Below, one piece after another: positions 1,319 to 7,116 of a stretch of DNA of 7,116 bases. The stretch lies in the IMG/VR virus record IMGVR_UViG_2651869696_000014; one strand, written 5' to 3'. The position numbers and the translations under genes are program-made. The notes under the pieces were generated by a model. The model was not told where the DNA came from. It saw nothing but the letters and a program-made list of their open reading frames with translations, and did no database searches. Each line of letters opens with the position of its first letter. Positions within the stretch are counted from its first letter, which is position 1. The stretch comes from a virus (taxonomy: Duplodnaviria; Heunggongvirae; Uroviricota; Caudoviricetes).

Positions 1319-1477
1319 TTGGTGTTCTTTCAGTTCTTCAATTCGAATATTGGTTACGTCTGCATGTGCTATCTGCGCCCACAGCATCCAGTGGTCATAG
1401 CAGTCGCTGATGTTCTCGGCTTCGATAACTCTGTTGAATGGTTCTCCATTCCATTCACCTGTAACTCGGAAGTGCAT
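1310..1477 (-). CDS. Hypothetical small protein (55 aa), in the position of lambda orf55
   Basis: Not in the supplied ORF track (below its size cutoff). Hand translation of the minus strand from the ATG at 1477 gives MHFRVTGEWNGEPFNRVIEAENISDCYDHWMLWAQIAHADVTNIRIEELKEHQAA, ending at TGA inside the terminator hairpin. Lambda has a 55-aa ORF between xis and ea8.5. No clear Shine-Dalgarno. Confidence 0.45.
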   Translation of the reverse strand: MHFRVTGEWNGEPFNRVIEAENISDCYDHWMLWAQIAHADVTNIRIEELKEHQAA

Positions 1478-1487
1478 TTATCATCGC

Positions 1488-1515
1488 CATAAAACAAAAC
1501 TCGCCGTAGCGAGTT
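1488..1515 (-). terminator. Rho-independent terminator-like hairpin (minus strand): stem CUCGC/GCGAG, loop UACG, followed by UUUUGUUUUAU
   Basis: Read on the reverse complement, about 50 nt downstream of the Ea8.5-like stop. Weak point: the orf55-like ATG is only about 11 nt beyond the U tract. Confidence 0.4.
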
Positions 1516-1565
1516 CAGATAAAAGAAATCCCCGCGAGTGCGAGGATAGTTACTTGTTCATATTA

Positions 1566-1847
1566 TTAATCGTCAATGTATTTTGAGCATTGTGGGCAAT
1601 CATCGATCCCACAATACGATTCATATGCATCCTTTATTGCGTCGCGGGCTTCAGTAAGAGTATTGAATAAGTTGCAGCTATTATCTTTTTGATATAGGTT
1701 AGTTCCTAATTTATAAGCAGAAGAAGCATCATTTCCGCTGTCTAAAATTACATCGTTATGGATTCTGCACCTTGCAAGAACTCCTGATCCCATAAGGGTC
1801 TGCATAGCCCATTGCTCTTGATCTTCACACAAATCATGAATGCTCAT
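1566..1847 (-). CDS. Cys-rich small protein, lambda Ea8.5-like (putative zinc-binding); 93 aa from the preferred start
   Basis: The track ORF is 1566..1865 (99 aa). I prefer the internal ATG at 1847 (MSIHDLCED...) because GAGAGG lies 7 nt upstream, while the 1865 ATG has no SD. Size and position match lambda ea8.5. Cys/His pattern (C-x4-C-x2-C near the C-terminus plus upstream Cys/His) suggests metal binding. Visibly AT-rich compared with neighbours. Confidence 0.55.
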   Translation of the reverse strand: MSIHDLCEDQEQWAMQTLMGSGVLARCRIHNDVILDSGNDASSAYKLGTNLYQKDNSCNLFNTLTEARDAIKDAYESYCGIDDCPQCSKYIDD

Positions 1848-1961
1848 TTCAACACCTCTCTTCACGTTTCACACACGTTAAGATTAACAGTGTTTTTACA
1901 TGCTTTGGAAGATTTATTTTATAAAAACTCTTTTAATACAAATAGATATAATAGTTCACTA

Positions 1962-2759
1962 TTATAGCTCCTTTAATCGAGGCGGTTCTGGTAGAGGCAT
2001 CCAGTGGGTTACACCGCCAATTGGCTCATCGTCGTCGTACTCCAATGCGGTTATATAGAACCCGTCACGACGAGAATAAGAAATCCCGGACATTACAATG
2101 CCATCCGAAACAACAATAATGTCACCCGTTTCTTTCGGCATTCGCTCACTACAGCTTATCCAACCATCCGGAGTCACCGGAAGCGAGAACGGCAGCACAT
2201 CTCTGTGAACAAGTTTTTGCTGTGACAGGTTATCCAGAACTTTCTGTACTGCTGCATCACCGAATACACCAAGCGCATCTGCCATAACTCCTACAACCTG
2301 ATAAGCCTCAGCGCATACCGTGGATAAACCATCCGGAATTACCGGAGAGTTGCCGGGTTCTTTAATGTGCAAGCGAGGCTCACCATCTTTTGGTTCAGGC
2401 CACTGGCGCTCCATGTTGATCTTCAATTTATCTTCCATAGCAGCGGTAATTTCAGCATCGCTGATGCCAGCACGGCGCTGTGCATCCCACAACAGGAAAT
2501 GCATATCAGCCCACTCGCTGAGATCGTCTGGTTCGGCTGCGGCTTCCAGAGCCTCTTTTGAGAGGTGTTTCAGTGGACCAATGGGGCCAACGCAGCCAAA
2601 TGTGGAGTCAGACCATTTGGCATGCTCGTGGCGAATCAGTTCGCGTTCCAGTGATGCCAGTGCAATTCGTGCCAGTTCCATTTGTTCGCCACGAGTAAGC
2701 CCGTTTTCAAGCGGATTTTTAATGAACAATTCAATACGTTCTTTGGTAATAGTGGTCAT
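1962..2759 (-). CDS. Phage protein with N-terminal DUF550-type (putative MazG-like dATP/dGTP pyrophosphohydrolase) domain and C-terminal DUF551 domain (265 aa)
   Basis: Complete ORF with AAGGA 7 nt upstream of the ATG. The C-terminus ...GGVTHWMPLPEPP matches what I recall as the DUF551 signature. The N-terminal Glu-rich helices (GEQMELARIALASLERE ... EWADMHFLLWD) are compatible with an all-alpha NTP-pyrophosphohydrolase fold. The domain call is from memory, not from a search. Confidence 0.7.
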   Translation of the reverse strand: MTTITKERIELFIKNPLENGLTRGEQMELARIALASLERELIRHEHAKWSDSTFGCVGPIGPLKHLSKEALEAAAEPDDLSEWADMHFLLWDAQRRAGISDAEITAAMEDKLKINMERQWPEPKDGEPRLHIKEPGNSPVIPDGLSTVCAEAYQVVGVMADALGVFGDAAVQKVLDNLSQQKLVHRDVLPFSLPVTPDGWISCSERMPKETGDIIVVSDGIVMSGISYSRRDGFYITALEYDDDEPIGGVTHWMPLPEPPRLKEL

Positions 2760-2769
2760 TTGTTAGTCC

Positions 2770-3525
2770 TTAAAGTGCTAGTTGCAATTGCATTTCAAAG
2801 CGGTCGCGTTGTTCACAATACGCAAGAGAACCAGGGCTATTGTGTGCCTCAATCCGTTCTACCATTAATGCTGCGCGTGTCTCTTTACTTGCAGGTGCAT
2901 AAGCCCCAGACCAGGCTTTATCAATACCGATGTTTCGAGCGACGTTCGTACTATCTGCGCTGGCTAAGGGTAATTTTGTGAATATCAGCGGATTTAACAT
3001 GCGCAATCCATGTAGTTTCGTAACCGGCTGACCATGCCCATCAACAATGTGACGAATCAGGTCTTTCATTCTGGCTACCGCAAGAGTTGGGCGCTTTACG
3101 TCATAGTCGCCACAACTACCGATAGCCACTCGCGGAAACTCATTGCACAAATGAATAAATCGCTCGTCACTTTCATTCATGTGCCACACTGGAACGCCAG
3201 CTAGTTTTCCGTGAGGCCACTCATTCAGAAGCGCATCATTTTCCTCCTCTCCGCCATCAATAACATCCGGGATAATGGCAAAATCGAATCCTGGGTGATT
3301 CTTCCAGCGAGCAACAAACTCGTAGTAAACGCTCCAGTCGATTTTGTTTTTGCCAGCTGCTTTCCAGGCGGTGAATGCACCGTTGTCCAGCGCGAACGAC
3401 TGACAGTATTCAGCCGCGAGATTGATCTGGCCTGAATGCGCAAAACTGATAAACGCATGTCGCCCTTTCCATGCTCTCATTGCGCACGTATCAGGAGTAA
3501 TAGGCCCACCGTGGTAGTGAATCAT
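2770..3525 (-). CDS. TGT-superfamily protein, putative DpdA-like DNA 7-deazaguanine transglycosylase (about 251 aa)
   Basis: The track ORF is 2770..3567 (265 aa). I prefer the ATG at 3525 (MIHYHGGP...): it has AAGGAG 6 nt upstream and leaves a 1-nt gap after the upstream stop instead of a 41-nt overlap. Motifs resemble bacterial Tgt as I recall it: ALDNGAF (cf. DSGGFQ), FAIIPDVIDGG (cf. IFDEC), VAIGS (cf. AVGG), ADSTNVARN (cf. MPTRNARN), in the same order. No C-terminal zinc subdomain. Confidence 0.6.
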   Translation of the reverse strand: MIHYHGGPITPDTCAMRAWKGRHAFISFAHSGQINLAAEYCQSFALDNGAFTAWKAAGKNKIDWSVYYEFVARWKNHPGFDFAIIPDVIDGGEEENDALLNEWPHGKLAGVPVWHMNESDERFIHLCNEFPRVAIGSCGDYDVKRPTLAVARMKDLIRHIVDGHGQPVTKLHGLRMLNPLIFTKLPLASADSTNVARNIGIDKAWSGAYAPASKETRAALMVERIEAHNSPGSLAYCEQRDRFEMQLQLAL

Positions 3526-3526
3526 C

Positions 3527-3934
3527 TCACTCTCCTTTGATGCGAATGCCAGTAGCGCGGATTGCATCGATGACTTCAGAAACTTTGTATGCCATTACCG
3601 TTTGGTAATCATCGTGAAAATCTGTTCGATGAAGCATGCTGCTACGTTCCGGGAGCAGTATTTCCCGCGCTTCCAGTTCTGCAATGCGCTTTTTTGCTGC
3701 TTCCAGTTCATCCAGTAATTCCAGCACGGTAGCCGGATTAGCCTTGGCAACAAAATCCCGGACTGGCTTACAATCAATCTCCGCAATGGGTTGATACGAT
3801 GTGTAGCCATGCTGTCTTGTATAACTACCGTGACGAATAACGAAAAAATCACCATTTATTTTTTTAGCCTGCCACTTATCTTCACCGGCTTTCTCTGCCG
3901 CTTCACGCAGTGCCTGAGAGTTAATTTCGCTCAC
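3527..3934 (-). CDS. Ead/Ea22-like protein (135 aa)
   Basis: N-terminal ...QALREAAEKA... and the ANPATVLELLDELEAAKKRIAELEA coiled-coil segment resemble the Ead/Ea22-like family of lambdoid prophages (from memory). It occupies the lambda ea22 position. Its start overlaps the upstream stop (ATGA). Confidence 0.6.
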   Translation of the reverse strand: MSEINSQALREAAEKAGEDKWQAKKINGDFFVIRHGSYTRQHGYTSYQPIAEIDCKPVRDFVAKANPATVLELLDELEAAKKRIAELEAREILLPERSSMLHRTDFHDDYQTVMAYKVSEVIDAIRATGIRIKGE

Positions 3935-4152
3935 TTCGAACCTCTCTGTTTACTGATAAGCTCCAGATCCTCCTGGCAACTTGCACAAGTCCGACAACCC
4001 TGAACGACCAGGCGTCTTCGTTCATCTATGGGATCGCCACACTCACAACAATGAGTGGCGGATATAGTCTGGTAGTTCAGACGACGCATTTTTATTGCTG
4101 TATTGCGCTGTAATTCTTCAATTTCTGATGCTGAATCAATGATGTCCGCCAT
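3931..4152 (-). CDS. DksA/TraR-family C4-type zinc-finger protein (73 aa), lambda orf73-like
   Basis: CxxC...CxxC motif (CCECGDPI ... CRTCASCQ) in a 73-aa protein; same size and position as the lambda TraR homolog orf73. Confidence 0.75.
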   Translation of the reverse strand: MADIIDSASEIEELQRNTAIKMRRLNYQTISATHCCECGDPIDERRRLVVQGCRTCASCQEDLELISKQRGSK

Positions 4153-4206
4153 CTTTCATTAATCCCTGAATTGTTGGTTAATACGCTTGAGGGTAAATGC
4201 GAATAA

Positions 4207-4228
4207 TAAAAAAGGAGCCTGTAGCTCC
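4207..4228 (-). terminator. Rho-independent terminator-like hairpin (minus strand): stem GGAGC/GCUCC, loop UACAG, followed by UUUUUUAUUAUU
   Basis: Read on the reverse complement (GGAGCTACAGGCTCCTTTTTTATTATT), 23 nt downstream of the stop of ORF 4251..4532 and upstream of the TraR-like gene. Confidence 0.5.
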
Positions 4229-4250
4229 CTGATGATTTTGCTTTTCATGT

Positions 4251-4532
4251 TCACCGTTCCTTAAAAACGCCGTTTAACATGCCGATTGCCAGGCTTAAAT
4301 GAGTCGGTGTGAATCCCATCAGCGTTACCGTTTCGCGGTGCTTCTTCAGTACGCTACGGCAAATGTCATCGACGTTTTTATCCGGAAACTGCTGTCTGGC
4401 TTTTTTGATTTCAGAATTAGCCTGACGGGCAATGCTGCGAAGGGCGTTTTCCTGCTGAGGTGTCACTGAACAAGCCCCATGTCGGCAAGCATAAGCACAC
4501 AGAATATGAAGCCCGCTGCCAGAAAAATGCAT
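4251..4532 (-). CDS. Hypothetical protein (93 aa) in the lambda orf60a position
   Basis: ORF in the track, in series with its neighbours (10-nt gap after the upstream stop). No recognisable SD and I do not recognise the family. The true start may differ. Confidence 0.45.
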   Translation of the reverse strand: MHFSGSGLHILCAYACRHGACSVTPQQENALRSIARQANSEIKKARQQFPDKNVDDICRSVLKKHRETVTLMGFTPTHLSLAIGMLNGVFKER

Positions 4533-6785: not shown

Positions 6786-6808
6786 GGTGATGCTGCCAAC
6801 TTACTGAT
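6786..6808 (+). repeat. IS1 left terminal inverted repeat (IRL)
   Basis: GGTGATGCTGCCAACTTACTGAT read directly in the sequence. Confidence 0.85.
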
Positions 6809-6840
6809 TTAGTGTATGATGGTGTTTTTGAGGTGCTCCA

Positions 6841-7116
6841 GTGGCTTCTGTTTCTATCAGCTGTCCCTCCTGTTCAGCTACTGACGGGGTGGTGCGTAAC
6901 GGCAAAAGCACCGCCGGACATCAGCGCTATCTCTGCTCTCACTGCCGTAAAACATGGCAACTGCAGTTCACTTACACCGCTTCTCAACCCGGTACGCACC
7001 AGAAAATCATTGATATGGCCATGAATGGCGTTGGATGCCGGGCAACTGCCCGCATTATGGGCGTTGGCCTCAACACGATTTTACGTCACTTAAAAAACTC
7101 AGGCCGCAGTCGGTAA
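6841..7116 (+). CDS. insA: IS1 InsA (91 aa), transposition repressor and N-terminal part of the InsAB' transposase
   Basis: Translation [91 protein letters not shown] matches InsA. The stop codon is the last three bases of the window. Confidence 0.96.
7099..7107 (+). promoter_or_regulatory. IS1 programmed -1 ribosomal frameshift motif (TTAAAAAAC, the A6C slippery site)
   Basis: The A6C run sits near the 3' end of insA at the known position for the InsA-to-InsAB' frameshift. The downstream insB' frame is outside the window. Confidence 0.7.

Follow-up and report, generated by a model that had tools for sequence, protein, structure and literature searches.

The window, i.e., the whole stretch of 7,116 nucleotides analyzed here, is the early-left arm of a lambdoid prophage on the minus strand. 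On this strand the gene order is int (1–1074), xis, an ea8.5-like gene, the open reading frame at 1962–2759 and a DpdA-like open reading frame at 2770–3567, continuing with an Ea22-like gene, a DksA/TraR zinc-finger gene, DUF1382, exo, bet and gam, after which an IS1 element follows. The main features are:

1962–2759, minus strand: eaA-like gene from the open reading frame listing, ATG start, 265 amino acids plus stop codon
2757–2772, minus strand: conserved junction TAAGGACTAACAAATG, with the DpdA-like stop codon TAA, an overlapping AAGGA, a 10-nt spacer and the eaA ATG
2770–3567, minus strand: "singleton" DpdA-like gene, PHROG 887 (PHROG E = 6e-103)
6787–7116: IS1 element (junction at 6786/6787), with the insA open reading frame starting from 6841

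Homology to intact prophages ends at 6786, inside the kil gene of a related prophage. The kil gene is therefore interrupted, and cIII, N and the immunity region lie outside the window. Terminator-like hairpins with T-runs are found on the minus strand at about 4212–4230 and at 1497–1547, where they flank the DksA-Ea22-DpdA-eaA-ea8.5 block; the region 1400–4300 holds seven terminator-like sites, compared with 2.6 expected from shuffled sequences. A 93-residue open reading frame at 4251–4532 on the minus strand had no Pfam match, and a related RefSeq prophage has only a 216-nt hypothetical gene at this place.

The 265-residue open reading frame, on the minus strand and with an ATG start, was correctly delimited in a preliminary description made from the sequence. 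The translation ends ...EPIGGVTHWMPLPEPPRLKEL, and the PEPP motif quoted in that description lies six residues before the end (C-terminal end of the open reading frame, ...GGVTHWMPLPEPPRLKEL). Identical or 99%-identical proteins are already present in public databases under the names "DUF550 domain-containing protein" and "dATP/dGTP pyrophosphohydrolase domain-containing protein", the latter being used by RefSeq for the same gene. As an accessory gene of lambda- and P22-like prophages, it is ordinary and has already been catalogued. EaA of Salmonella phage P22 (gene eaA, NP_059588) has the same N-terminus, MTTITKERIELF...ELARIALASL, and a Pfam run on P22 EaA returned PF04447 followed by PF04448, as in the window protein. 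The gene position is equivalent, too. In P22, in BTP1, where the corresponding gene is annotated eaA, and in a related E. coli prophage, it lies in the early-left pL operon between ea22/eaD-like genes and xis-int. From this common N-terminal module, DUF550 plus DUF551 architecture and pL operon location we conclude that the window gene is an eaA homologue. DUF550 domains of the EaA or "Eaa-like" proteins of P22, BTP1, ST64T, mEp390 and relatives are 75–85% identical. In contrast to the window protein, P22 EaA has another linker cassette and another DUF551 core; moreover, P22 eaA follows eaI/eaD, and no DpdA-like gene is annotated in the P22 ea-int region. A literature search for the function of eaA/EaA yielded no usable paper, and a review modelling the exo-xis region does not mention DUF550 or DUF551 domains.

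The protein is built from the following parts, given with the repeats that border the linker:

2649–2759, minus strand: N-terminal module, residues 1–37 (MTTITKERIELFIKNPLENGLTRGEQMELARIALASL), common to P22 EaA and many variants that lack DUF550
2349–2636, minus strand: PF04447 (DUF550) domain, residues 42–137, a MazZ-type all-alpha (d)NTP pyrophosphohydrolase core
2327–2346: 20-nt direct repeat, copy 1, on the upstream side of the 55-residue cassette, encoding the junction motif SPV(I/T)PDG
2175–2339, minus strand: optional 55-residue cassette, residues 141–195, two low-confidence helices (pLDDT <50)
2162–2181: 20-nt direct repeat, copy 2, at the junction of the 55-residue cassette and DUF551
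1980–2165, minus strand: PF04448 (DUF551) domain, residues 199–260, a small five-stranded beta-barrel

The N-terminal module matched no Pfam family and is helical in the AlphaFold2 model. Searches of NCBIfam and PADLOC gave no match for the eaA-like protein.

A Pfam domain search recovered both DUF550 and DUF551 far beyond chance, as the preliminary description had called them. PF04447 (dATP-dGTP_PPHyd, formerly DUF550) matched over profile positions 1–96 of 97 with E = 1.1e-41 and 141.4 bits against a cut-off of 23, and PF04448 matched with E = 7.5e-14 and 52.8 bits against a cut-off of 22. The name attached to DUF550 at that time, "dATP/dGTP diphosphohydrolase, N-terminal", was wrong: this Pfam name belongs to PF18909 (DUF5664), which Pfam did not find in the window protein. 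The idea of a MazG-like enzyme gained support from the Pfam matches, from an AlphaFold2 four-helix core and from conserved metal-binding Glu/Asp residues. The AlphaFold2 model, built with 66 sequences, contains four confident helices in residues 23–117 (pLDDT 83–92), i.e., the all-alpha four-helix MazG/HisE fold. As the best match, Foldseek returned MazZ of cyanophage S-2L (PDB 7ODY) with a probability of 1.00 and a target-normalised TM of 0.73, at an E-value of only 0.09. A six-sequence family profile matched the 7ODY sequence with E = 1.9e-5, and S-2L MazZ is itself a PF04447 member (44 bits). When the full protein was compared with PDB sequences by phmmer, only a chance match to a GST was obtained (E = 0.84); the relation to 7ODY is visible only by family profile and fold comparison.

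S-2L MazZ is a (d)GTP-specific MazG-like pyrophosphohydrolase from a Z-genome cluster, and roles have been assigned to its residues (PMC8342488). We transferred these roles to the window protein by alignment, which gave the following correspondences (MazZ residue named first):

E35 and E69: metal ligand
E38 and E72: metal ligand
E50 and E82: metal ligand
D53 and D85: metal ligand
D60 and D92: nucleotide contact
K76 and K111: nucleotide contact
N80 and N115: nucleotide contact
W85 and W120: nucleotide contact
W15 and W49: nucleotide contact
E34 (metal ligand in MazZ) and K68: family-wide difference in EaA-type domains
K31 and H65: family-wide difference in EaA-type domains
N20 (guanine O6 contact in MazZ) and F54: family-wide difference in EaA-type domains

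The four acidic residues E69, E72, E82 and D85 (ExxE ... ExxD) were invariant in family alignments that extend from enterobacterial to actinobacterial phage members. Of the guanine-specific pocket of MazZ, the N2 contact D60 is kept as D92, whereas the O6 contact N20 is replaced by F54. Given that E34, K31 and N20 of MazZ all differ in EaA-type domains, the substrate preference could differ as well. The DUF550 domain is under strong purifying selection, with a pN of 0.15 compared with a saturated pS of about 0.8 (against P22 and BTP1) and a dN/dS of 0.16 against a Klebsiella phage copy. For the alignments, DUF550 diversity was taken from phage records; the best 150 representatives in a library of 1.8 billion proteins had DUF550 domains that were all >72% identical to each other.

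We compared the window protein with two Z-genome enzymes. S-2L MazZ shares the PF04447 domain, the metal ligands and the nucleotide contacts listed above. In contrast to the window protein, with which it is only 29% identical, it is a stand-alone protein of 105 residues encoded beside PurZ and DatZ, whereas the window protein is fused to other modules and has H65, K68 and F54 in place of K31, E34 and N20. The dATP/dGTP pyrophosphohydrolase of Acinetobacter phage SH-Ab 15497, a DUF5664-DUF550 fusion from which the Pfam family name derives, has a PF04447 domain with the E(W/F)AD, LL(W/F)D and K..IN..R.W motifs, like the window protein. It differs by its N-terminal PF18909 (DUF5664) and by lacking DUF551, and its gene lies between those for PurZ and an HD phosphohydrolase. 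As another phage has an active dNTP pyrophosphohydrolase that consists of DUF5664 alone (PMC12884076), the activity of the SH-Ab 15497 fusion may partly reside in DUF5664. PurZ and DatZ, both present in S-2L and SH-Ab 15497, are not annotated in the related complete prophage L001, and the eight scanned window open reading frames contain no such Pfam domain; the window hence does not carry a PurZ/DatZ/MazZ cluster of the Z-genome type. Extrapolating from S-2L MazZ, at 29% identity, and from the SH-Ab 15497 fusion enzyme, we consider it very probable that the window protein is active as a (d)NTP pyrophosphohydrolase that depends on metal ions and prefers purines; its exact substrate is inferred.

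Downstream of DUF550, the 55-residue cassette is optional, as some proteins that are otherwise the same (L005, L040) lack it; it matched no Pfam family above its cut-off. The two copies of the 20-nt direct repeat are 90% identical and spaced by 165 nt, i.e., exactly 55 codons. In the DUF551 domain the ends are conserved (GWISCSERMP ... THWMPLPEPP) and the middle is hypervariable. In gene pairs with DUF551 cores averaging only 19% identity, the 36-nt upstream junction was 97% identical in DNA and 93% identical at third positions, and the 27-nt downstream junction was 91% identical in DNA and 74% identical at third positions. Such conservation of junction DNA at synonymous sites, next to diverged cores, is what recombination at short shared sequences leaves behind. 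DUF551 appears to be a portable adaptor with a conserved frame and a hypervariable core that is swapped at DNA-level junctions.

For Ea22, the same mosaicism of blocks has been reported by Donaldson and co-workers, who termed DUF551 a portable domain (PMC10834534). The Ea22 variants of lambda and Stx phages resemble the window gene in their exo-xis neighbourhood, mosaic blocks and DUF551 (PMC10834534), but carry a coiled-coil Ead_Ea22 core in place of DUF550. YfdS of the E. coli prophage CPS-53 also carries DUF551, without a hydrolase domain (PMC4776307). In the yfdQRST genes of CPS-53, YfdS adjoins YfdR, an HD-domain YfbR-like nucleotidase; this is the enzyme class of DatZ, the companion of DUF550/MazZ in Z-genome phages. 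With YfdS next to YfdR and DUF551 fused to DUF550 in EaA, DUF551 is found together with nucleotide hydrolases in two unrelated contexts. Other cassettes also occupy the EaA position: a frequent one (L007, L011, L013 and others, at about 6809–7384) ends with CPECFGDDDCETCDGSGRIEI, a motif that resembles a DnaJ-type zinc finger, and another recurrent one (L060, L074) carries AAIAEVRGWNACRAAML.

Upstream of the eaA-like gene, the DpdA-like protein matched PHROG 887, but no Pfam family, including TGT, and no NCBIfam or PADLOC model, and searching the PDB sequences with a five-sequence profile gave no match. The protein counts as a very divergent "singleton DpdA" with a putative activity; the paper that described this group of gamma-proteobacterial phage proteins leaves their function open (PMC6884629). 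The listed open reading frame begins 14 codons before the conserved start (MIHYHGGP) and shares 41 nt with the Ea22-like gene, and homologues from Salmonella, Klebsiella and Shigella phages align from its residue 15. From these alignments the true start is probably M15, with its ATG at 3525–3523, 1 nt past the Ea22 stop codon. At the other end, the stop codon TAA (2772–2770) is separated from the eaA ATG (2759–2757) by a 10-nt spacer, GGACTAACAA. An AAGGA Shine-Dalgarno sequence (2771–2767) overlaps this stop codon and lies 7 nt 5' of the ATG; the overlap and the distance of 10 nt were exactly as the preliminary description had given them. The 10-nt spacing and the MTT start were kept in 65 of 78 DpdA loci, whatever cassette comes next. 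An internal promoter separating the two genes was considered and rejected, as there was no promoter-like site on the minus strand between them.

In the E. coli UTAK-6 prophage (L001), a gene beyond cIII (14727–15350) is annotated as "Nmad5 family putative nucleotide modification protein". The DpdA-like gene is part of the same early-left operon, at a distance of about 4 kb, and the Nmad5 product might be a better candidate partner than EaA for a DNA-modifying enzyme.

To describe the neighbourhood of both genes, we sampled 80–120 loci per query. Downstream of the window-type DpdA (80 viral contigs, 87–100% identity) we found 60 different proteins that share the junction motifs: DUF550 was present in 26 contigs, in at least five N-terminal architectures including that of phage BTP1, DUF551 without DUF550 in 19, and neither domain in 35. 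In the SfI-type DpdA lineage, which is 68% identical, DUF550 was adjacent in none of 78 loci. With one genome per species (Pantoea, Erwinia, Yersinia, Proteus, Rahnella and others), it was adjacent in none of 29 evaluable DpdA loci and within 5 kb in three. Conversely, in the 80 viral contigs with the closest DUF550 domains, DpdA was directly upstream in 15, elsewhere in the locus in three and missing in 62; the gene immediately upstream was DpdA in 15, Ea22-like in 23 and another one in 40. Host spread was different as well. Phage records with DUF550 numbered 510, with 365 from Klebsiella, compared with 107 records with the DpdA-like gene, 43 from Vibrio and five from Klebsiella; Vibrio is outside the ten commonest DUF550 hosts among the phage records.

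Complete E. coli genomes carried a full-length DpdA-like gene in 201 cases, the DUF550 allele in 512 of 5426 and the pair in 100, i.e., a raw odds ratio of about 12 with approximate denominators. As 81 genomes carry at least 80% of the same 7-kb prophage segment, most of these roughly 100 pairs probably represent one prophage lineage and are not independent, and we based no conclusion on the raw ratio. As a neutral anchor, we used exact matches to the initial 20 nt of the eaA-like gene: DUF550 was present in 4 of 11 cases behind DpdA, in 10 of 40 behind Ea22 and in 6 of 51 behind other genes. The difference between DpdA (4/11) and all others (16/91) was not significant (p = 0.22).

These data bear on the functional link proposed in the preliminary description. 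There, the pyrophosphohydrolase would be dedicated to the DpdA-like transglycosylase as its partner, and would condition the dGTP pool or destroy nucleotides that contain 7-deazaguanine or are otherwise aberrant, so that guanine exchange in DNA can proceed. In favour of the link are the translational coupling of the two genes in the window, the guanine nucleotides used by MazZ-type enzymes, the 26 of 80 window-type contigs with their several architectures and the raw E. coli odds ratio. Yet the same junction precedes many unrelated cassettes, the neutral anchor gave no significant difference, adjacency was absent from the SfI-type and species-level loci, most of the closest DUF550 genes have no DpdA nearby, P22 shows no DpdA-like gene in its ea-int region, and the hosts of both genes differ. 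A lack of co-occurrence with such genes in other genomes, which had been named beforehand as evidence against the link, was largely what we found. Moreover, DpdA enzymes exchange the free preQ0 base into finished DNA (PMC6884629, PMC10516641), so that a dNTP hydrolase is not required, and the consulted passages of these papers describe no pyrophosphohydrolase component. The scanned window open reading frames had no preQ0-pathway Pfam match, and L001 has no such annotation. Without conserved co-occurrence with DpdA across lineages, the gene does not behave as a component of 7-deazaguanine DNA modification. We consider a dedicated partnership very improbable and conclude that adjacency to the DpdA-like gene reflects cassette shuffling and not a conserved partnership.

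Two further explanations concern the DUF550 domain itself. Its substrate may be a guanine-nucleotide signal, (p)ppGpp or an immune messenger, so that EaA would bias the decision between lysis and lysogeny or blunt abortive-infection defences. By analogy, Atd1, a MazG-like protein of a phage, has been reported to hydrolyse ppGpp and to protect from TIR-STING toxicity (bioRxiv 10.1101/2022.06.09.495361); the gene lies in the exo-xis region, where products such as Ea22 influence lysogeny (PMC10834534), the conserved guanine-N2 contact D92 with its changed O6 counterpart fits such a substrate, and a hypervariable DUF551 adaptor would suit an arms race. Against this, S-2L MazZ was characterised on (d)GTP (PMC8342488), stand-alone DUF550 proteins are found in virulent Klebsiella and actinobacterial phages, where control of lysogeny is irrelevant, and the protein had no PADLOC match, although PADLOC models defence and not anti-defence proteins. 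We regard a signal as the substrate as rather unlikely, if clearly less so than the DpdA partnership. A catalytically dead structural cassette, carried as a passive passenger in a recombination hot spot, would agree with a highly mosaic region that is non-essential in model phages, and with the lysine found in the EaA-type family for the MazZ metal ligand E34. This is highly improbable in view of the metal ligands and pocket residues that are invariant from enterobacterial to actinobacterial phages, of a pN that stays at 0.15 while synonymous sites are saturated, and of the stand-alone 105-residue PF04447 members, among them the active S-2L MazZ (PMC8342488).

We therefore favour, as the probable explanation, an EaA-family early accessory protein that is composed of swappable cassettes, contains a MazZ-like purine pyrophosphohydrolase and owes its DpdA neighbour to recombination. 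EaA proteins, named after gene eaA of phage P22, are non-structural accessory proteins that lambdoid and P22-like temperate phages encode in the early-left operon. They are put together from exchangeable in-frame cassettes, in this copy the 37-residue N-terminal helix module, PF04447, the optional 55-residue linker and the PF04448 beta-barrel. The pL transcript would allow the gene to be expressed soon after infection or induction, with its translation coupled to that of the preceding gene, and its product would probably be a dimer or tetramer. With divalent metal ions, the DUF550 domain would convert a purine (d)NTP to the (d)NMP and pyrophosphate, most likely dGTP or GTP and possibly dATP. 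DUF551 would serve as the portable adaptor, and the DpdA adjacency would arise by recombination at the short conserved junction sequences. As candidate roles in early phage development, the enzyme may trim the purine nucleotide pool or remove guanine-nucleotide signals.

The best-supported reading is thus an EaA-family accessory early protein with a MazZ-like DUF550 cassette, for which a role on (p)ppGpp or an immune signal is possible and a dead cassette unlikely. A more far-reaching proposal, which we put forward only tentatively and think unlikely in its full form, is that EaA-type proteins are widespread early effectors. In these, a MazZ-like hydrolase would be targeted to host or phage partners by its swapped DUF551 barrel and would remove a guanine signal or lower dGTP locally, influencing lysogeny or evading defence and perhaps cooperating with the singleton DpdA in this lineage.

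Annotations of this common gene exist already, and the speculative DpdA link fails its own test. Close spacing and coupled translation of two genes in the mosaic exo-xis/ea region of lambdoid prophages are not by themselves a sign of a functional pair, and the speculative connection between nucleotide-pool hydrolysis and 7-deazaguanine DNA modification is removed. The EaA DUF550 cassette, found in about a tenth of complete E. coli genomes (512/5426), has retained the greater part of the catalytic apparatus seen in a (d)GTP pyrophosphohydrolase that has been crystallised, which makes the biochemical hypothesis concrete for a long-unexplained gene of P22 and Stx phages.
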